Shown here: positions 4,662-61,985 of the stretch, piece by piece
Layout: each line of letters begins with the position of its first letter
How positions within the stretch are numbered: position 1 is the stretch's first letter
Source of the DNA: Candidatus Yanofskybacteria bacterium
GTDB lineage: Bacteria; Patescibacteriota; Minisyncoccia; 2-02-FULL-40-12; IGHO2-01-FULL-4-A
DNA length: 64,000 bases
NCBI GenBank assembly: GCA_016181175.1
Contig: JACOZV010000003.1
Span: forward strand, 39,773 to 103,772
Reading direction: 5' to 3'
The notes under the pieces: model-generated
What the model was told of the DNA's origin: nothing
The model's database searches: none
What the model saw: the letters and a program-made list of their open reading frames with translations, nothing else
Made by a program: the position numbers and the translations under genes

Positions 4662-6821
4662 ATGTTTGACTTGAACACTCCCATCGAAAAACTCACTCGT
4701 GTCGGACCGAAGTTTTTGGCACGTTTGAAAAAACTGGAAATAAAATCAATCAAAGATTTATTGTGGCACTTCCCGGCACGCTATGACGACTTCAGTAAGT
4801 TATTACTAATATCAGACATTAATAACGCGGGGGAAGTTGTAAGTATTGCCGGCGAAGTGACAGATATCGAAATGGCAAGGTCATGGCGGCGCAGAATGAT
4901 CATTGTTAACGCAACTGTTGAAGACCAAAGCGGTTCTATCCGCGCTGTCTGGTTCAACCAGCCTTATATCGCTGATGCCTTAAAAATCGGGACAAATGTC
5001 AGCTTATCCGGCAAAATTTCCATGGACAAAAATGGCTTATACTTTTCGTCACCATCTTATGAAAAAATTTTTCCGCTAGAAACCGGTTTAACACACACCG
5101 GCCGGCTGGTTCCTGTTTATCCGGAAACCGAAGGCATTACCTCCAAGTACTTGCGTTTTTTGATTAAACCAATCCTTTTAAAAATGAGAGGTGTGCCCGA
5201 TCCCCTACCGTCAGAGATTATTAAAAAATATAACCTGCCAAACTTAGTTAAAGCCATCAATCAAATACATTTTCCGAAAAATCTGGAACAAGCCGAATCG
5301 GCAAGAAAAAGATTTACACTTGAAGAGTTACTTTTATTCCAACTGAGAACGTTGCGCGATCACAGGCAACTCCGAATGTTAAAAGCACCCCGAATTAATT
5401 TTGACAAGAAAATAATATCAGACTTCGTGAAAAATCTGCCCTTTAAATTGACCGATGATCAGAGAGTAGCGGCATATGAAATTCTACAAGACTTGGAACG
5501 GCCTTTTCCCATGAACCGGCTCCTTAACGGCGACGTCGGTTCCGGAAAAACTGTTGTGGCATTAATATCAGCTTTTCAAACAGTTTCAGCCGGCTTTCAG
5601 ACAGTATTCATGGCCCCAACGGAAATACTGGCCAAACAACACTTTGACTCGCTTTGTTCAACCATACTCACTGCAAGTCGCTCGCTCAACGCGGACGCAA
5701 AAATCAAAATCGGATTGTTAACCGGGAGTGAAGCAAAGCAATTCCCGACAGACGAGGTTGTTGAAGAAAAAATCAGTAAGAAATTGCTGGCATTAAAAAT
5801 TGCCAAGGGGCAAATAGATATTGTAATCGGCACCCATGCAGTAATTCAAAAGGGTATAAAATTTGCGAAATTAGGCCTTGTAATAATAGACGAGCAACAC
5901 AGATTCGGAGTTAAACAACGAATGCAGCTAATTAAAAATCAAGAATTGGTGCCGCACCTCCTGTCCATGACCGCGACTCCGATCCCGCGCACACTAGCTC
6001 TGACCGTCTATGGAGACTTGGACGTTTCACTGATTAAAGAAAAACCCAAAGGTAGGCAGCAAATTATCACCAAAATTATTCCGCACAGTAAAAGAAGTGA
6101 CGCTCTTGAATTTGTAGAACAACAAATTCGGTCTGGACGCCAAGTTTTTGTCATATGTCCTCAAATTGAAACATCAAAAACAGAAGAACCGGCGCAAAAC
6201 AAACCAATTTCACAAACAAAATTAGTTTGGGCCGAAATTAAGGCCGTATCCGATGAGTACGAGAAACTCTCAAAAAAAGTTTTTTCCCACCGTAGGGTGG
6301 CAATGCTCCATGGAAAAATGAAACCAAAAGATAAGAATGAAATTATGAAAAAATTCAAAGATGGGCATTATGACATACTGGTATCCACTTCCGTTGTTGA
6401 AGTGGGCATGGACATACCCAACGCCGCCGTCATGATGATTGAGTCGGCCGAAAGATTCGGCTTGGCCCAATTGCATCAATTCCGGGGACGGGTCGGCCGC
6501 GGCAAACACCAATCATATTGCTTATTGTTTACAAGCAGTAACGACACACGGACAACCCGTAATTTAAAAGCACTTGAAAAAACCGACAGCGGTTTTGAGT
6601 TGGCAGAAGCTGATCTAAAAATACGCGGTCCCGGGGAATTTACGGGAACGCAACAGTCAGGCCTTCCTGATTTTGCAATGGCGTCACTTGCCGACATTGA
6701 TCTGATAAAAAAAACCAGGCTTGAAGCCAGGTTATTATTAAAAGATGATCCGGCGCTGAAACGCCATCCGCTCCTTGCCGCCAGATTGGCAGAAATGCAA
6801 AGATTGGTCCATTTTGAATAA
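4662..6821 (+). CDS. recG: ATP-dependent DNA helicase RecG
   Basis: N-terminal wedge/OB region, then Walker A DVGSGKTVVA, DEQHRFGV (DEQH box), TATPIPRTLA, and the RecG-typical C-terminus. Confidence 0.9.
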   Translation: MFDLNTPIEKLTRVGPKFLARLKKLEIKSIKDLLWHFPARYDDFSKLLLISDINNAGEVVSIAGEVTDIEMARSWRRRMIIVNATVEDQSGSIRAVWFNQPYIADALKIGTNVSLSGKISMDKNGLYFSSPSYEKIFPLETGLTHTGRLVPVYPETEGITSKYLRFLIKPILLKMRGVPDPLPSEIIKKYNLPNLVKAINQIHFPKNLEQAESARKRFTLEELLLFQLRTLRDHRQLRMLKAPRINFDKKIISDFVKNLPFKLTDDQRVAAYEILQDLERPFPMNRLLNGDVGSGKTVVALISAFQTVSAGFQTVFMAPTEILAKQHFDSLCSTILTASRSLNADAKIKIGLLTGSEAKQFPTDEVVEEKISKKLLALKIAKGQIDIVIGTHAVIQKGIKFAKLGLVIIDEQHRFGVKQRMQLIKNQELVPHLLSMTATPIPRTLALTVYGDLDVSLIKEKPKGRQQIITKIIPHSKRSDALEFVEQQIRSGRQVFVICPQIETSKTEEPAQNKPISQTKLVWAEIKAVSDEYEKLSKKVFSHRRVAMLHGKMKPKDKNEIMKKFKDGHYDILVSTSVVEVGMDIPNAAVMMIESAERFGLAQLHQFRGRVGRGKHQSYCLLFTSSNDTRTTRNLKALEKTDSGFELAEADLKIRGPGEFTGTQQSGLPDFAMASLADIDLIKKTRLEARLLLKDDPALKRHPLLAARLAEMQRLVHFE

Positions 6822-6822
6822 T

Positions 6823-7155
6823 TTAGCCGGTAATTCTTTGTTTCACAACCTCGGCTAACTTTTGAAATTCGTACACGTCAAATGATTTTTTGTATGCCTG
6901 AATCTTTAGAATTTCTTCTATCTGCCGGTCAATAAACTCACAAATGGGCAAAATGTCTAAAAAGTCTCTGGAGCTCACGGAAGGATCATTATCCATTTCC
7001 AGCAACTTTTGTTCTAAATCTTCATAATCATCCAAAATCCTATTGACCCTTTTTGCTCTTTTAATGTCGTAAAGAATTTTAAGGGTAAACGATATGACGG
7101 CGCCAGCCATCAAAAGGAATAAAAGCGTAGTGTTTGCTCTCACACCGACCCTCAT
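6823..7155 (-). CDS. hypothetical small membrane protein
   Basis: 110 aa with an N-terminal hydrophobic segment and no recognisable motif. Confidence 0.35.
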   Translation of the reverse strand: MRVGVRANTTLLFLLMAGAVISFTLKILYDIKRAKRVNRILDDYEDLEQKLLEMDNDPSVSSRDFLDILPICEFIDRQIEEILKIQAYKKSFDVYEFQKLAEVVKQRITG

Positions 7156-7216
7156 TAAAATATTAAGATTCTGTATTAAGAATATAAATAAATACTTTAC
7201 TTGTAAAGATCACCCC

Positions 7217-35556: not shown

Positions 35557-36468
35557 ATGACCATCAAAGACCTCAAAACACAATTTCTAGAATATCTGGA
35601 GATAGAAAAAAACCGTTCAGCAAAAACGGTTGAAAACTACAATCACTACCTAGTTAGGTTTATTAATTTCGCCAAAATGGGACGGCCGGAAGAAATTACC
35701 GAAGAACTTATCAGAAAATATCGGCTCTACTTAAACAGATTAAACGATGGCGGTGATAAACCGCTAAAGAAGGTCACCCAAAATTATCACATCATTGCCC
35801 TGCGGGCGTTTCTTAAATATCTGGCCAAACGTGATATCAAAACTGTTTCAGCGGAAAAAGTAGAGCTTGGCAAACAGGAAGAACGTCAGGTTACGTTTCT
35901 GGAACCGCAAGAATTGGAAAGATTTTTAAAAACGCCGGCGGGTACGGCTCTGGCTGACTTACGTGACCGTGCAATACTTGAAACACTTTTCTCCACCGGT
36001 CTTCGTGTCTCTGAACTATGCTCTTTAAATCGAACTGATATAGACGTAAAAAGAGGGGAGTTTGGAGTGCGTGGCAAAGGCAGTAAGATACGGGTAGTCT
36101 TCCTGTCCGATACTGCAAGGATGGCCCTTGTAACTTACCTGAATAAACGTCCGGATGCCGATGAAGCGTTATTCATTCGCATACCGCAGAATGAAAAACT
36201 GGAGAAATATGAAAAACTAAGACTTACTCCGCGCAGTATCCAACGTATTATCAAAAAATATGCCATTGTTGCTGGCATTGTTGGCAAGAGGGTTAGCCCT
36301 CACAGCTTGCGCCACTCGTTTGCCACCGACCTTTTGCGCAATGGCGCCGATATCCGCTCCGTCCAAGCTATGCTAGGCCACTCCTCTGTAACCACTACCC
36401 AAATTTATACCCATGTCACAGACAAACAGTTAAGAGAGGTACATGAGAAATTTCACGGAAAAAAATAG
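35557..36468 (+). CDS. tyrosine recombinase XerC/XerD family
   Basis: C-terminal catalytic region HSLRHSFATDLLRNGADIRSVQAMLGHSSVTTTQIYTHV (R..H..R..H..Y). Confidence 0.85.
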   Translation: MTIKDLKTQFLEYLEIEKNRSAKTVENYNHYLVRFINFAKMGRPEEITEELIRKYRLYLNRLNDGGDKPLKKVTQNYHIIALRAFLKYLAKRDIKTVSAEKVELGKQEERQVTFLEPQELERFLKTPAGTALADLRDRAILETLFSTGLRVSELCSLNRTDIDVKRGEFGVRGKGSKIRVVFLSDTARMALVTYLNKRPDADEALFIRIPQNEKLEKYEKLRLTPRSIQRIIKKYAIVAGIVGKRVSPHSLRHSFATDLLRNGADIRSVQAMLGHSSVTTTQIYTHVTDKQLREVHEKFHGKK

Positions 36469-42103: not shown

Positions 42104-42493
42104 TCAAGGCAACAAAGCCTTGATTTTTTGTTTTAACTGGCCAAATTCAAACTTTCCAACCTCTCCAATTTTATGGGACAATCTGCGGGCATCAATTAAT
42201 CTAATTTGAGATAAAATAGCGACACTTTCTTTATTATGTAATTTAAAATGGAAGTAATAGAGTGACTTTTTATTAGTTCTGGTAAGCGGAATGGCCCAAA
42301 AAATTTCATTATTAAATTTGCGAATAATCAAGACTGGTCTTAGAAAATCTTCTCCTTTTCCATCCTGTTCAAAACCGATATTTAATCCTAAGTGGCAAAA
42401 CCATATTTCTCGTTCATGGAAGAACGGTCTTTTTGCTAGCTCGTCAACCACGGATTTTTTATCATGCCACTTCCTAAAATCTTTCATGTGCAT
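42104..42493 (-). CDS. PemK/MazF/Kid-family toxin (mRNA interferase) with 25-aa N-terminal extension
   Basis: EREIWFCHLGLNIGFEQDGKGEDFLRPVLIIRKFNNEIFWAIPLT follows the Kid/MazF pattern (EIW.V.LDP..G.EQ.G.RPVLIV...V.PVTS). The hairpin plus T-run terminator overlaps the stop codon. Confidence 0.7.
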   Translation of the reverse strand: MHMKDFRKWHDKKSVVDELAKRPFFHEREIWFCHLGLNIGFEQDGKGEDFLRPVLIIRKFNNEIFWAIPLTRTNKKSLYYFHFKLHNKESVAILSQIRLIDARRLSHKIGEVGKFEFGQLKQKIKALLP

Positions 42494-42604: not shown

Positions 42605-43231
42605 TTATCTATCTCCTTGGAATCCATAAGACCATCCCCATATTTCTGCTTTTTGATCGTCATTATCCTCATTTTCTTGGCTACCAACCCCGGCCTTAGC
42701 TACAACAACTAGAGATTCAGGATTGTTTTTGAAAACAAACATAAAAGAATCTCTGACAATAGTCTCGTCTTCTGGTCCCCATTCTCTTGTATTCTTTACT
42801 CTCTCTCTTTCTCGTCTTGCAAGACAGGTGGCCCACTGCCAATCGTGCCCCGGACACTCCGGTATACCAAACTGTTTTCTAAATTCATACAAACGGTATG
42901 CGGCTCTTTCAACCCAGCGCCGCTCTCCCATTCCTTCCTCATTGCTTGTTTTTGACCCTTGCCACACTTCCTCTTGTTTGTTTAAGATTAACTGCTCTCT
43001 TTTTTCCGGCGAGTTAACTTGTCTGGCCATTACAAAATCCCCACAATATTGCCAAGCCCAGAAGCCTCCACAATGTGAACAATGGATAAAGCTTTTAAAT
43101 CCCAATGTGCCCTCATCTATTTTTTGTAAGTGGGGATGACCAGAACATTTTGGACACCGAAAATCTAAAACCCACGATTCTTCCGAACGAAATAAGTCAA
43201 ATAACCACATATTCTCCTCCTTTTTATTCAA
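42605..43231 (-). CDS. hypothetical Cys/Trp-rich zinc-ribbon protein
   Basis: CPKCSGHP...CSHCGG (a CxxC...CxxC ribbon) and a later acidic tail. It sits 110 bp upstream of the MazF-like gene on the same strand. Confidence 0.4.
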   Translation of the reverse strand: MNKKEENMWLFDLFRSEESWVLDFRCPKCSGHPHLQKIDEGTLGFKSFIHCSHCGGFWAWQYCGDFVMARQVNSPEKREQLILNKQEEVWQGSKTSNEEGMGERRWVERAAYRLYEFRKQFGIPECPGHDWQWATCLARRERERVKNTREWGPEDETIVRDSFMFVFKNNPESLVVVAKAGVGSQENEDNDDQKAEIWGWSYGFQGDR

Positions 43232-43449
43232 TTAAAAGAACATGCCAGATGGGATTTTACACCCCCAGCATCATTAGCACACAGAACATATGCTGTCAAG
43301 TTTTTTCCTCGGAATATCTGGAAAACCCACAAAATCCTTGTTTTTAATGAAATTTAATAATTAGTATTTTTTAGACATTTTTTAAGAAAACCGTTAATTA
43401 ATAACCCCTGCCTAACAAAGAACACCTTATTTGAGGTGTTCTTTGAATT

Positions 43450-43468
43450 GTGGATCTGGGGAGAGTTG
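43450..43468. repeat. 19-bp exact duplicate of the tmRNA 3' terminus (att-like direct repeat), about 180 bp beyond the tmRNA gene
   Basis: gtggatctggggagagttg occurs at 43450-43468 and at 43646-43664. The latter is the T-arm/acceptor 3' strand of ssrA. Confidence 0.65.
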
Positions 43469-43602
43469 GCTTTGGCTAAAATTTTCTTCCGAAAATTTTG
43501 CCTAGCCACCTGCTCGCGTGATTTTCTGCCAACTGCAGAAAATCACATGCTCCGCCGTTCATCTCTCCACGCGAGACAAGCAGTTGTCTCGTTTCCAGAT
43601 CT

Positions 43603-43636
43603 AGGACAAAACTAAACCCGCCACAAGGGCGGGCTC
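43603..43636 (-). terminator. rho-independent terminator of ssrA
   Basis: cccgcc-cttgt-ggcggg hairpin followed by TTTAGTTTTGT on the minus strand. Confidence 0.6.
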
Positions 43637-43646
43637 GTTTTGTCCG

Positions 43647-43998
43647 TGGATCTGGGGAGAGTTGAACTCCCGTCTAGAAGTTGATTTAAAATTGCACTAC
43701 AAGTTTAGCCGGACTGTTTAGTCCTCGGTTAAAAGCCCGACAGAATAACCGAAAACCTGTTTTGTATTTTTCGAATCGTAACGCCGAAACATTTAAAAAA
43801 CGCTACAATCTTATCCTGCTAATGACACCCTGATTCGGCTAGCAGAAATCACCGAGAGGATGCGCCTTAAGCGTAAGCTAAAGCGTAATTGCTATTGTAG
43901 TTGGCAATTATAATTTTGGGTAGGTACTTAAAGTGGTGACTACCCATCCACTACTTGCGCAAATTTTAAAAGAAATTCTATCGAAGCCGGTCAGACCC
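43647..43998 (-). ncRNA. ssrA: tmRNA (ssrA), one-piece, 352 nt; tag ORF 43868-43905 encoding (A)ANYNSNYALAYA
   Basis: Lies immediately 3' of smpB on the same strand. The 5' GGGUCUG pairs with the 3' CAGAUCC, giving G3:U70 and discriminator A. T-arm gggag-uucaacu-cuccc. The 5' region resembles the E. coli GGGGCUGAUUCUGGAUUCGAC. Tag frame gcc aac tac aat agc aat tac gct tta gct tac gct TAA (compare E. coli ...AAC UAC GCU UUA GCA GCU UAA). CCA is not encoded. Confidence 0.85.
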
Positions 43999-44000
43999 GC

Positions 44001-44474
44001 CTAAATTTTTTGTTTGATTGCTCTTTCTATCTTCCTTTGGACTTCGCGTTTGGTTATTTTTTCTCTCTTGTCTGATTTTTTCTTACCCCGACCAATGCCT
44101 ATTTCCAACTTAATCAAACCGTTCTTATTATACAATTTAATTGGCACCAAAGTCAACCCATGCTCTTGCGATTTACCAATGAGATACTTGAGTTCCGAAC
44201 GCTTTAACAGCAATTTACGAGAGTTTTGCGGATCATAACCGGCTGGTGCGTTACCTGCTTGATACGGCGGGATAGTTGCTCCCAAAAGCCACGCTTCGGT
44301 ACTCCGTCCTGAGCCTATCGAAGGACCAAGCACTTTTACATAAGCTCCCTTAATTGACGCGCTTCCGCGTCTGATTGATTTAACTTCCTGCCCGGTCAAA
44401 ACAATACCCGCCTCAAGCGTTTCCAATATCTCATAATCAAACCTTGCTTTTTCATTTGTGGCATAGATTTGCAT
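44001..44474 (-). CDS. smpB: SsrA-binding protein SmpB
   Basis: MQIYATNEKARFDYEILETLEAGIVLTGQEVKSIR...LVPIKLY...KKSDKREKI, the canonical SmpB. Confidence 0.9.
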   Translation of the reverse strand: MQIYATNEKARFDYEILETLEAGIVLTGQEVKSIRRGSASIKGAYVKVLGPSIGSGRSTEAWLLGATIPPYQAGNAPAGYDPQNSRKLLLKRSELKYLIGKSQEHGLTLVPIKLYNKNGLIKLEIGIGRGKKKSDKREKITKREVQRKIERAIKQKI

Positions 44475-60845: not shown

Positions 60846-60919
60846 GCGGGCGTAGCTTAGTTGGATAAAGCGCCTCCCTGTCACGGAGGAGATCGAGGGT
60901 TCGAGTCCCTTCGCCCGCG
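60846..60919 (+). tRNA. tRNA-Asp (anticodon GTC)
   Basis: Manual fold: acceptor gcgggcg/cgcccgc, D-stem gctt/aagc, anticodon stem cctcc/ggagg with loop ctGTCac, T-arm gaggg-ttcgagt-ccctt, discriminator G. A terminator hairpin follows at 60931-60960 (aaacatgcc-ttga-ggcatgttt). Confidence 0.9.
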
Positions 60920-60972
60920 CAGTATAAAAATGAAACATGCCTTGAGGCATGTTTTGCGTTTAGATAGCTAAT

Positions 60973-61101
60973 GGCGAAGGGACTCGAACGCCGGAACGAT
61001 ATTTCGTCAGTAGACTAAATCGTGAGGCGGTGGCTAGACAAAATTTTGCGACGGCAAAATTTTAGTCAAAGCCGAGTCTCTTCGCCCGCGCAATATAAAA
61101 A
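60973..61101. repeat. att-like partial copies of the tRNA-Asp 3' end: an inverted 16-nt copy (60973-60988) and a direct 23-nt copy (61077-61101, 22/23 identical)
   Basis: ggcgaagggactcgaa is the reverse complement of tRNA-Asp ttcgagtcccttcgcc. tcttcgcccgcgcaatataaaaa matches ccttcgcccgcgcagtataaaaa at the tRNA 3' end and flank. Confidence 0.65.
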
Positions 61102-61127
61102 CCATCGTGTTTGATCTGGTGGTTTTT

Positions 61128-61985
61128 TTATTTTGGGTAGGTTATGTTGCTTTCAACTTGCGGGAATATAACATCGGATTTGGCGCGAAATCTCCGGTAA
61201 TTCTTCCACATTCCCGAAGCAAAATACCACTTTCTGTCACGATTAAATTGCGCAGCCATTTCTATACTCACCGGCAATCTTAAAAGCTCTTGATTTTCAC
61301 CGAGACCAACAAATTCATAATTTACACTTATAAAAAGAGTTGACGATAACAGGCCTTCTGGCAAGTACAATTCTTGAAAAATCTGCAGAACATTAAACTG
61401 TTCGTCAACAACAACTCGACCCGAACACCCAACAGCCCCGTCCCAGTTACTAAAAAAACTGTTGCGTTCAGTATAGTGACAAACCTTATCTTGCGAAAAT
61501 GCTTTGTAACTAAAAACTTGCACAATTTTTCCTTTGTAACTACTAACGCCCTGATAGCTGACGGGGGTAGTAACCAAATGCTTAAACAGATCATGCCATT
61601 CTTGCCCTGGCCTAACGCCTATTCCCGGAATTGGGAGCGCAAATCTCTCTTTGCCGAATTTGCCACCAGGTTCTATCTTGCGAAACACCTGACGGTTGTT
61701 ATAAATTGCAACTTCATATCGCCAAGTTTCTCTGGATTTAGTTTCACCCCACAACCGCAATTCTTGTTCTGCCAACAGATCAGTCATCAACGCCAGGTTT
61801 TTACTCACCTTGTTTTTCATGACAAAAATTAAGTTAGCTGAATCCGTTTCCTTGTCTAACATGAGCGGTTTGTCTAGCTTTAACTTCAAATCCGGCAAAT
61901 AAGTAGTGCTTTCATTTTTTTGTTCAGCGAATAAAGCCGGAAAAAAAATAAAAACTGACAAAATGCAATAAAAAGGCACCCTCAT
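61128..61985 (-). CDS. hypothetical secreted protein
   Basis: Signal peptide (MRVPFYCILSVFIFFPALFA) and no recognisable motif. Confidence 0.4.
   Translation of the reverse strand: MRVPFYCILSVFIFFPALFAEQKNESTTYLPDLKLKLDKPLMLDKETDSANLIFVMKNKVSKNLALMTDLLAEQELRLWGETKSRETWRYEVAIYNNRQVFRKIEPGGKFGKERFALPIPGIGVRPGQEWHDLFKHLVTTPVSYQGVSSYKGKIVQVFSYKAFSQDKVCHYTERNSFFSNWDGAVGCSGRVVVDEQFNVLQIFQELYLPEGLLSSTLFISVNYEFVGLGENQELLRLPVSIEMAAQFNRDRKWYFASGMWKNYRRFRAKSDVIFPQVESNITYPK

Follow-up and report, generated by a model that had tools for sequence, protein, structure and literature searches.

A gene-less, structured module inserted at the 3' ends of ssrA and tRNA genes in Paceibacteria, possibly a non-autonomous mobile element

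In a 64,000-nucleotide (nt) stretch of the genome of a Candidatus Yanofskybacteria bacterium (hereafter the window), the gene for transfer-messenger RNA (tmRNA), ssrA, is followed by a second copy of its own last 19 nt, and relative to syntenic relatives the 196 bp so delimited are a true insertion. The inserted module is gene-less and structured, and belongs to a family whose members sit at the position between the T-loop and the 3' end of ssrA, tRNA-Asp and tRNA-Ile genes in Paceibacteria, a lineage of the candidate phyla radiation (CPR). Each module carries a sense and an antisense copy of a gene end, and these match whichever gene adjoins while the module body stays conserved. The genomes of CPR bacteria (Patescibacteria) are tiny, and few mobile elements can be recognised in them. 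The module is a site-specific insertion at tRNA-like genes; that it represents a non-autonomous mobile element is the reading that we favour, with our confidence about evenly divided for and against it.

The insertion behind ssrA

The window ssrA is a complete gene of the one-piece type encoding the tag peptide ANYNSNYALAYA (ARAGORN), and the Rfam model RF00023 matches 43644-43998 over its full length (model positions 1-374) with 145 bits. A preliminary description of this locus, made from the sequence alone, had called ssrA intact and placed it on the minus strand directly after smpB, with which ARAGORN, Rfam and Pfam agree. It had also noticed the duplication of the gene end. This end, GTGGATCTGGGGAGAGTTG on the plus strand, is present exactly twice in the window (19/19 identical), with no third copy in the 64 kb when three mismatches are allowed and none expected by chance (100 shuffles). 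The two copies lie 196 bp apart from start to start and enclose 177 bp. On the tmRNA strand the repeat extends from base 3 of the T-loop (that is, between TT and CAACT) through the 3' strand of the T-stem and that of the acceptor to the discriminator A and one C.

We used the window smpB as the query for collecting related loci, which are referred to here by L numbers. Its product, for which exact-protein look-ups gave no match, is 100% identical to P0001, a protein of a Ca. Yanofskybacteria metagenome-assembled genome, and the closest loci in the genome collection are from Yanofskybacteria. One related locus, L005, whose SmpB and tmRNA gene are respectively 83% and 88.5% identical to those of the window, aligns with it on both sides of one clean 196-bp gap bounded by the repeat, and has, immediately after the tmRNA 3' end, the hairpin and flank that in the window come after repeat copy 2. 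The same empty arrangement and downstream flank are seen in L136 (SmpB 87% identical), and the segment is likewise missing from the further close relatives L123, L139 and L133/L003. These empty sites bear out the earlier suggestion that the repeat is an attachment-site (att)-like signature of insertion.

All the hairpins previously listed for this region exist. The one that abuts the distal repeat does not form part of the insertion; since L005 and L136 carry the hairpin and its flank directly after ssrA, it is the native terminator of the gene. By contrast, the G+C-rich hairpin that directly follows the restored ssrA end is not present at the empty site of L005, and arrived with the insertion. 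As the module supplies a replacement 3' end of the gene and what is predicted to be a terminator of its own, ssrA remains intact.

The interval between the repeats is non-coding. Its only two open reading frames (ORFs), of 59 and 51 amino acids, have no Pfam match, and it contains no recombinase gene or remnant thereof and no cargo, phage or transfer genes. The interval is nevertheless more than "too short to encode anything", as the preliminary description had it: it is a conserved, structured unit, and it holds an antisense copy of its target that had escaped notice. Perfect inverted repeats of 12 bp (43518-29/43535-46) and 8 bp (43572-79/43584-91) lie within it, and another of 12 bp (43416-27/43434-45) in the native terminator. 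To these we add three that were absent from the earlier list, of 9 bp (43478-86/43491-99), 8 bp (43513-20/43568-75) and 9 bp (43604-12/43637-45), the last of them enclosing the G+C hairpin scored as an intrinsic terminator. Both strands of the 196 nt fold far more stably than dinucleotide shuffles, one at -96 kcal/mol (z = -9.1) and the other at -92 kcal/mol (z = -10.1). The antisense copy is in two blocks, a'1 and a'2 (Table 1); a'1 of the window is partly eroded (ctaGATCTGG), and relatives keep 9-11 nt of it, such as GGTGGATCTG in L126.

Table 1. Position of the module parts and associated genes in the window
Feature	Position	Strand	Remarks
Xer-family tyrosine recombinase gene	35557-36468	plus	Pfam Phage_integrase and SAM-like domain; only recombinase gene seen in the window
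Native ssrA terminator hairpin	43416-43445	minus	Outside the insertion; orthologous to the hairpin directly after ssrA in L005 and L136
Repeat copy 2	43450-43468	minus	Displaced or duplicated ssrA 3' end; right junction of the insertion
Conserved 3' body	43468-43519	minus	GCGAGCAGGTGGCTAGG, hairpin 43478-43499, AGCCAAAGC; match to covariance model R2, 61 bits, E = 4e-10
Variable 12-bp hairpin	43518-43546	minus	Stem in L094 differs by compensatory changes (GTGGTTTGCCGC/GCGGCAAACCAC)
Module 5' core	43543-43608	minus	Match to covariance model R1, 62 bits, E = 3.7e-11
Conserved single-stranded motif	43544-43560	minus	GAACGGCGGAGCATGTG; query for finding relatives
Antisense block a'2	43558-43568	minus	GGAGAGATGAA, complement of T-loop and T-stem 3' strand TTCAACTCTCC, 1 mismatch
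CUGC-loop hairpin	43572-43591	minus	Between the two antisense blocks
Antisense block a'1	43595-43601	minus	GATCTGG, complement of acceptor 3' strand CCAGATC
Module-borne terminator hairpin	43604-43645	minus	GGACAAAAC..CCCGCC cttgt GGCGGG..GTTTTGTCC; terminator-like site 43636-43614
Repeat copy 1	43646-43664	minus	Final 19 nt of the gene; left insertion junction
ssrA (tmRNA gene)	43646-43998	minus	One-piece, complete; ARAGORN; directly after smpB
smpB	44001-44474	minus	Pfam SmpB, 1.1e-48; immediately upstream of ssrA
tRNA-Asp (GTC)	60846-60920	plus	Target of the second module; ARAGORN and Rfam; last 19 nt, 60902-60920, are its repeat copy 1
Second module of the family	60921-61091	plus	Behind tRNA-Asp

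A family of modules at tRNA-like genes

Relatives of the module were recovered in several ways. L001 has two motifs in common with the window interval. A metagenome scan with the 18-nt motif TGAACGGCGGAGCATGTG gave 16 matches, among which only L093, L094, L096, L099 and L104 are true relatives, the rest being chance matches in high-GC coding DNA. The first four of these are groundwater contigs from Hainich with a module behind ssrA, bounded by a 19-nt repeat of their own tmRNA end (CATCTCC where the window has CAGATCC); L104 is a further copy with no tmRNA gene in front of it. By script we looked among the ssrA loci for a duplicate of the terminal 13 nt of the tmRNA gene; 11 of 64 loci have one 119-241 bp downstream, not counting L029, whose apparent 3.6-kb island was rejected as a chance 12/13 match within a polX-like gene with housekeeping genes between. 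We also built two covariance models, R1 for the 5' core of the module and R2 for its 3' body. R1 has 38 matches at E<1 (about 29 at E<=0.001) in the 966 kb searched with it, nearly all of them on the gene strand and 40-55 nt past the tmRNA 3' end; R2 has 27, including both window copies. Of about 85 Paceibacteria loci, about 30 have a module behind ssrA; they come from bins of Yanofsky-, Kaiser-, Vogel- and other "Parcubacteria" with SmpB proteins only 45-60% identical to that of the window.

The order of parts on the gene strand is common to the family, as are the motifs GAACGGCGGAGCATGT and GCGAG..GG..C. After the gene 3' end come a terminator hairpin and then a'1, the complement of the acceptor 3' strand and discriminator (e.g. 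GTGGAGATG for CATCTCCAC), a hairpin of 7-9 bp with the loop CUGC, and a'2, the complement of the T-stem 3' strand and T-loop (e.g. GGGAGAGTTGAA for TTCAACTCTCCC), so that the antisense copy is usually split by the CUGC hairpin. These are followed by the conserved stretch CGGCGGAGCATGT, a variable hairpin, the segment GCGAG..GGGG.CGCGA, a further hairpin and GTGACC or AGCCAAAGC. The sense copy of the gene 3' end, which usually starts after the TT of the T-loop, and the native terminator close the array of parts. In L006 and in unit 2 of L094 a variant occurs with a hairpin in inverted orientation.

The helices are maintained by compensatory change. In an alignment of members the CUGC hairpin is 98.8% paired, and both sides have changed in seven of its nine pairs, a state reached by none of 500 shuffles; among 23 distinct members, 205 of 207 pairs are Watson-Crick, with a single G-T. 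Likewise, stems differ between copies as GAGACAA/TTGTCTC versus AAGCCAA/TTGGCTT and as GTGATTTTCTGC/GCAGAAAATCAC versus GTGGTTTGCCGC/GCGGCAAACCAC. In the minimum-energy folds of most members a'1 and a'2 pair with the terminal repeat and thereby close the module. There is no promoter-like site inside the module, which starts with a terminator-like hairpin with a T-run. A search of 43300-43700 against Rfam 15 at E <= 10 gave nothing besides the tmRNA itself, and related modules gave sub-threshold matches at chance level, with no family that fits. A full-text literature search, the coverage of which was incomplete, returned papers on ssrA islands and none that describes structured modules without genes next to ssrA or tRNA genes of CPR bacteria; an earlier description elsewhere is possible.

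The match between module and adjoining gene is specific. Between the last 24 nt of a gene and its own module the exact complementary blocks add up to a mean of 16.2 nt, as against 5.5 nt for non-cognate pairs, only 2% of which reach the cognate median. The tRNA-Asp module of the window is a clear instance. Its body (61020-61073) closely resembles that of the ssrA module and is recognised by R2 with 58 bits (E = 1.8e-9), and its antisense block is a continuous 17-nt stretch, GGCGAAGGGACTCGAAC at 60973-60989, that is the reverse complement of GTTCGAGTCCCTTCGCC in the T-loop/acceptor part of tRNA-Asp; the module also contains GCCGGAACGATAT. Repeat copy 2, CGAGTCTCTTCGCCCGCGC at 61073-61091, matches in 18 of 19 positions and is in the same T-loop register as at ssrA; the module has a terminator hairpin at about 60932-60955, is followed by the native terminator at about 61097-61129, and folds with -72.6 kcal/mol (z = -8.2). 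Further modules stand behind tRNA-Ile(UAU) in L071, L076 and L061, with antisense blocks that match that tRNA.

Modules also occur in tandem, with three units in L094/L096, two near-identical 131-bp units in L018, four body matches over more than 1 kb in L023, and an array in L071. The L071 array (2010-2450, behind tRNA-Ile(UAU)) has at least three short units, each ending in tRNA-end copies of the type ..GGGCTACA; TGTACGAGACGG is present three times in it and the full core in the third unit only. Where a copy does not lie at a tRNA-like gene (L104, the second copy of L126, and L076), the sequence ...CCAC always adjoins it on the left. L126 has two 100% identical module copies (5106-5330 and 6603-6830), 1.5 kb apart, that flank two ORFs without Pfam match; the terminal repeats of both have an acceptor part, ATCTCCAC, unlike the end of its own tmRNA, AGATCCAC, as if imported from another host. 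Over its 3' ~95 nt the window module shares 93-97% identity with the modules of L126 and L094, while the tmRNA genes are only 79-80% identical, and the module is missing from the five closest relatives despite having a body more conserved than the host tmRNA gene. This combination fits transfer or recent insertion.

Some features of the surrounding loci are worth recording in their own right. A MazF/PemK toxin gene (42104-42493, minus) and a 208-amino-acid ORF with CxxC pairs that could not be annotated (42605-43231, minus) lie just downstream of the ssrA locus of the window. In L005 a MazF-like ORF comes after the shared flank without the 208-amino-acid ORF in between, and hence the downstream neighbourhood of ssrA is variable too; between flank and MazF-like ORF this locus has a G+C-rich, hairpin-rich stretch (~7060-7215) that resembles a structured RNA. 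L062 and L064 have ssrA on the strand opposite to smpB (convergent), unlike every other locus, and L062 still has a module behind ssrA. Five of the seven metagenome contigs encoding the SmpB protein P0016 (L127-L131) stop ~120-150 nt past smpB, within ssrA, which suggests assembly breaks from downstream repeats or strain variation.

Mobility and competing explanations

The modules carry no gene, and we therefore infer that they are non-autonomous and moved in trans. On the favoured reading a recombinase encoded elsewhere would move the module site-specifically, with a crossover within the T-loop in the register of the serine-recombinase ssrA islands of Dehalococcoides. A more specific proposal, which we regard as doubtful, is that the module acts as a folded single strand; it derives from the ability of the sense and antisense target copies to pair within one strand, which would create a double-stranded image of the target site with the CUGC hairpin as an asymmetric marker. 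A role at the DNA level is favoured over one at the RNA level because of the terminator at the start of the module, the lack of an internal promoter-like site and the near-absence of wobble pairs. We further entertain, tentatively and as something that may well prove wrong, the idea that the modules are an undescribed class of "programmable" mini-elements, in which a body of ~100 nt is flanked by sense and antisense images of the target, and the target is found or recreated by nucleic-acid pairing and not by protein-DNA recognition. Either a guide-like RNA or an att site folded from a single strand would do the pairing. With such recognition the elements could hop among ssrA, tRNA-Asp and tRNA-Ile in streamlined CPR genomes and thereby build arrays.

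A number of observations weigh against mobility of this kind. Several members have a decayed terminal sense copy but an antisense copy that is still a perfect match for the live gene; pairing with the end of the gene itself, or gene conversion in a long palindrome, accounts for this better than a pure folded att site. The terminator stem adjoins the antisense block without a gap, and together with the gene end they make up one such palindrome. The sense strand folds slightly better than the other in 19 of 25 members, which a role as RNA would explain too, and to our knowledge no recombinase mechanism explains how both target copies change in concert on retargeting. Strong constraint combined with precise loss between the 19-bp repeats, rather than gain, could account for part of the patchy distribution. 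Lastly, the modules have no recombinase tied to them, and the ~1 Mb examined yielded no autonomous, gene-carrying relative that shares their ends.

Candidates for a partner enzyme were considered with this in mind. The Xer-family protein of the window scores ~243 bits with the NCBIfam XerC/XerD models, which is below their cut-off, and 233.7 bits with the XerA-type model (cut-off 220); it is at most a candidate for an enzyme acting in trans. A comparison with related genomes for islands at ssrA had been suggested, and large serine recombinase genes abut ssrA in antisense orientation in L076 (6866-8473, minus), L040 (6773-8302, minus) and L036 (1839-3413, minus). The L076 protein has 535 amino acids with Resolvase and Zn_ribbon_recom domains, the last ~35 nt of its gene overlap the ssrA 3' end, and an island of ~5.1 kb with PIN-like and terminase-small-subunit-like ORFs lies between ssrA and a module. 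In the Paceibacteria, ssrA is used by real islands. The window contains no homologue of this serine recombinase, and we rejected it as a simple mobiliser of the modules, as the junction of a circularised module would be expected to resemble attB and not the attP of the island. Scans of viral contigs with a 17-nt motif, the 19-nt core and a 16-nt hairpin did not find a phage bearing attP; the matches are unrelated phage coding regions or phage-borne tmRNA genes, which have the conserved T-arm and acceptor in common with ssrA. The large IMG/VR phage contigs L089 and L090 have a tmRNA gene or tmRNA-like 3' end with the last 19 nt identical to those of the window ssrA, adjoining big tRNA arrays (26 tRNA/tmRNA genes in 4.9 kb in L090).

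The foremost competitor of a mobile element is a structured noncoding RNA, namely a small RNA or 3' trailer with a function linked to tRNA-like genes, which would arise by terminator read-through and have spread by duplication without dedicated mobility. We think this unlikely, yet deserving of serious attention. The partner of its antisense blocks would be either the upstream tmRNA or tRNA precursor, at its 3' end, or the terminal copy of the module itself, and the pairing might serve, for instance, in the control of maturation or as a tRNA-like minihelix. The near-invariant orientation of modules with the adjoining gene, the conserved unpaired motifs and covarying helices, the greater stability of the sense strand and the fact that the antisense blocks remain perfect complements of the live gene in members with a decayed terminal repeat are all in keeping with it, as is a topology of acceptor-like stem, arm and T-stem-like helix. 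A weak match of the tmRNA_permuted model over the tmRNA end and a'1 of L023 (29 bits) points the same way, but reflects only the order of tmRNA 3' end, spacer and acceptor-complement. On the other side, every module opens with a hairpin of terminator type and a T-run and lacks a promoter-like site inside, the helices are almost purely Watson-Crick, no Rfam family matches, and the acceptor-like stem reads as A-U where tmRNA has the G-U identity pair for alanine. Presence and absence in close relatives, tandem arrays and copies at sites other than tRNA genes would require mobility or duplication in any case.

The preliminary description had found the locus consistent with an excised or decayed integrative element, or with a residual att or recombination site; the former would be the scar of a larger island or prophage integrated at ssrA that lost its genes by deletion. 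The 19-bp repeat is in the classic register for this, real serine-recombinase islands exist at ssrA in related genomes, and degenerate remnants and partial tRNA repeats are known beside island tRNAs (bioRxiv 10.1101/2020.12.28.424599; PMC3146451). Nevertheless, independent deletions would not yield one 130-250-bp architecture in dozens of distant genomes, and they would leave unexplained hairpins maintained by compensatory changes, a module body more conserved than the tmRNA gene, and a sister copy at tRNA-Asp with retargeted repeat and antisense block; nor is there any gene fragment, the ORFs of the interval being without Pfam match. We accordingly regard a scar as improbable. An origin as a non-functional by-product of replication, in which synthesis switches template or snaps back at the terminator palindrome and so repeatedly creates and extends inverted and direct copies of the gene end with no dedicated element, strikes us as very improbable. 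It would explain why gene end, terminator and antisense block are one palindrome, why complementarity in L126 continues through the trailer and why the antisense block follows the DNA sequence, including trailer bases other than CCA, but not the conserved non-palindromic body and motifs common to the ssrA, tRNA-Asp and tRNA-Ile copies and to distant genomes, nor the position of the CUGC-loop hairpin, which in most members interrupts the antisense block at one and the same point. Finally, that repeat and spacer form a terminator or processing region of ssrA conserved in all relatives, an alternative named in the preliminary description, is refuted by the empty sites: modules are common, and of the Paceibacteria ssrA loci examined about a third have them, but the closest relatives are empty with clean boundaries, copy number ranges from 0 to 4, and tRNA genes have modules as well.

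Several other identities were rejected. For a group I or II intron in the T-loop there is no significant match (a single group II domain-5 match, E = 8.3, lies far below the gathering score), and the upstream copy of ssrA is complete without splicing. Along with the intron, we dropped readings as a ribozyme, IS200/IS605 element, IS110 bridge RNA, retron or primer-binding site, as no model matched and no associated protein was found, and as the antisense block follows the DNA trailer and not the mature CCA end. A tandem partial duplication of ssrA was also discarded, the module body being unlike the tmRNA 3' domain when the two are read side by side.

Relation to known systems

If the modules are mobile, a gene-less family of ~0.2 kb that seeks out essential tRNA-like genes and inserts at their ends would rank among the smallest site-specific elements known; and if base pairing sets the target, this would be recombination with a programmable site, akin in spirit to integron attC sites, the attP of CTX phage and bridge RNAs. 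Recurrent duplications of 3' ends beside ssrA in CPR metagenome bins are explained by the family, as may be some of the assembly breaks there, and the R1 and R2 covariance models can be used to annotate modules.

The nearest parallel in register is with the Dehalococcoides ssrA islands, which encode the large serine recombinase DsiB, insert midway along the T-loop with a 20-bp ssrA repeat, and form tandem islands (McMurdie et al. 2011; PMC3146451). The modules share the T-loop register, a repeat of ~20 bp and the occurrence of several units in tandem downstream of ssrA (PMC3146451), and in related Paceibacteria (L076, L040, L036) the gene of a 535-amino-acid serine recombinase overlaps the ssrA 3' end, as in the DsiB case. 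However, those islands span kilobases, with an integration module and cargo, while the window module has 177 bp, no gene, a folded body and an antisense copy of its target. Successive integrations in tycheposons likewise leave partial tRNA copies (bioRxiv 10.1101/2020.12.28.424599). Cis-mobilizable elements (CIMEs) are flanked by att sites, lack a recombination module and keep functional attL and attR (PMC3146451). Like CIMEs, the modules have att-like flanking repeats and no recombinase of their own, and movement in trans or by accretion is proposed for them; but CIMEs are kilobase-sized deletion derivatives with no conserved fold, whereas the modules are a family with its own sequence and structure.

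Elements that integrate at tRNA and tmRNA genes by means of an integrase (the sublocation scheme of Williams 2002) supply a replacement 3' end, so that the target stays intact. The modules resemble them in the replacement end, in the partial gene copies at their borders and in older units being pushed outward. They differ in having no integrase, a size of only ~0.2 kb and an internal inverted copy of the core, and the module sequence left of the distal repeat gives no symmetric core (there is no GGGAG arm). Because the defining recombinase and cargo are absent, we do not assign the module to the integrase-island family.

Integron attC sites and the attP(+) of CTX phage are imperfect palindromes, the arms of which pair within one strand and rebuild the site for a recombinase. 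Comparable features of the modules are inverted arms that pair within one strand in the predicted folds, conservation of structure over sequence, arrays of units that each end in the same short core, and the Xer/integron-integrase-like tyrosine recombinase encoded in the window. In distinction to these sites, the module arms copy the end of the target gene, the target is a tRNA-like gene and not attI or dif, and no integron integrase lies beside the array. Repeats comparable to miniature inverted-repeat transposable elements, such as the Rickettsia palindromic elements and the repetitive extragenic palindromic (REP) sequences and bacterial interspersed mosaic elements (BIME), are gene-less, hairpin-rich, ~100-250 bp long and found in or next to RNA genes. 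The modules are like them in size, lack of genes, hairpins and association with RNA genes, but those repeats are multi-copy and not matched to a target, whereas the modules number one to four per locus, stand at tRNA-like 3' ends, and carry a 19-bp copy of the target together with its antisense.

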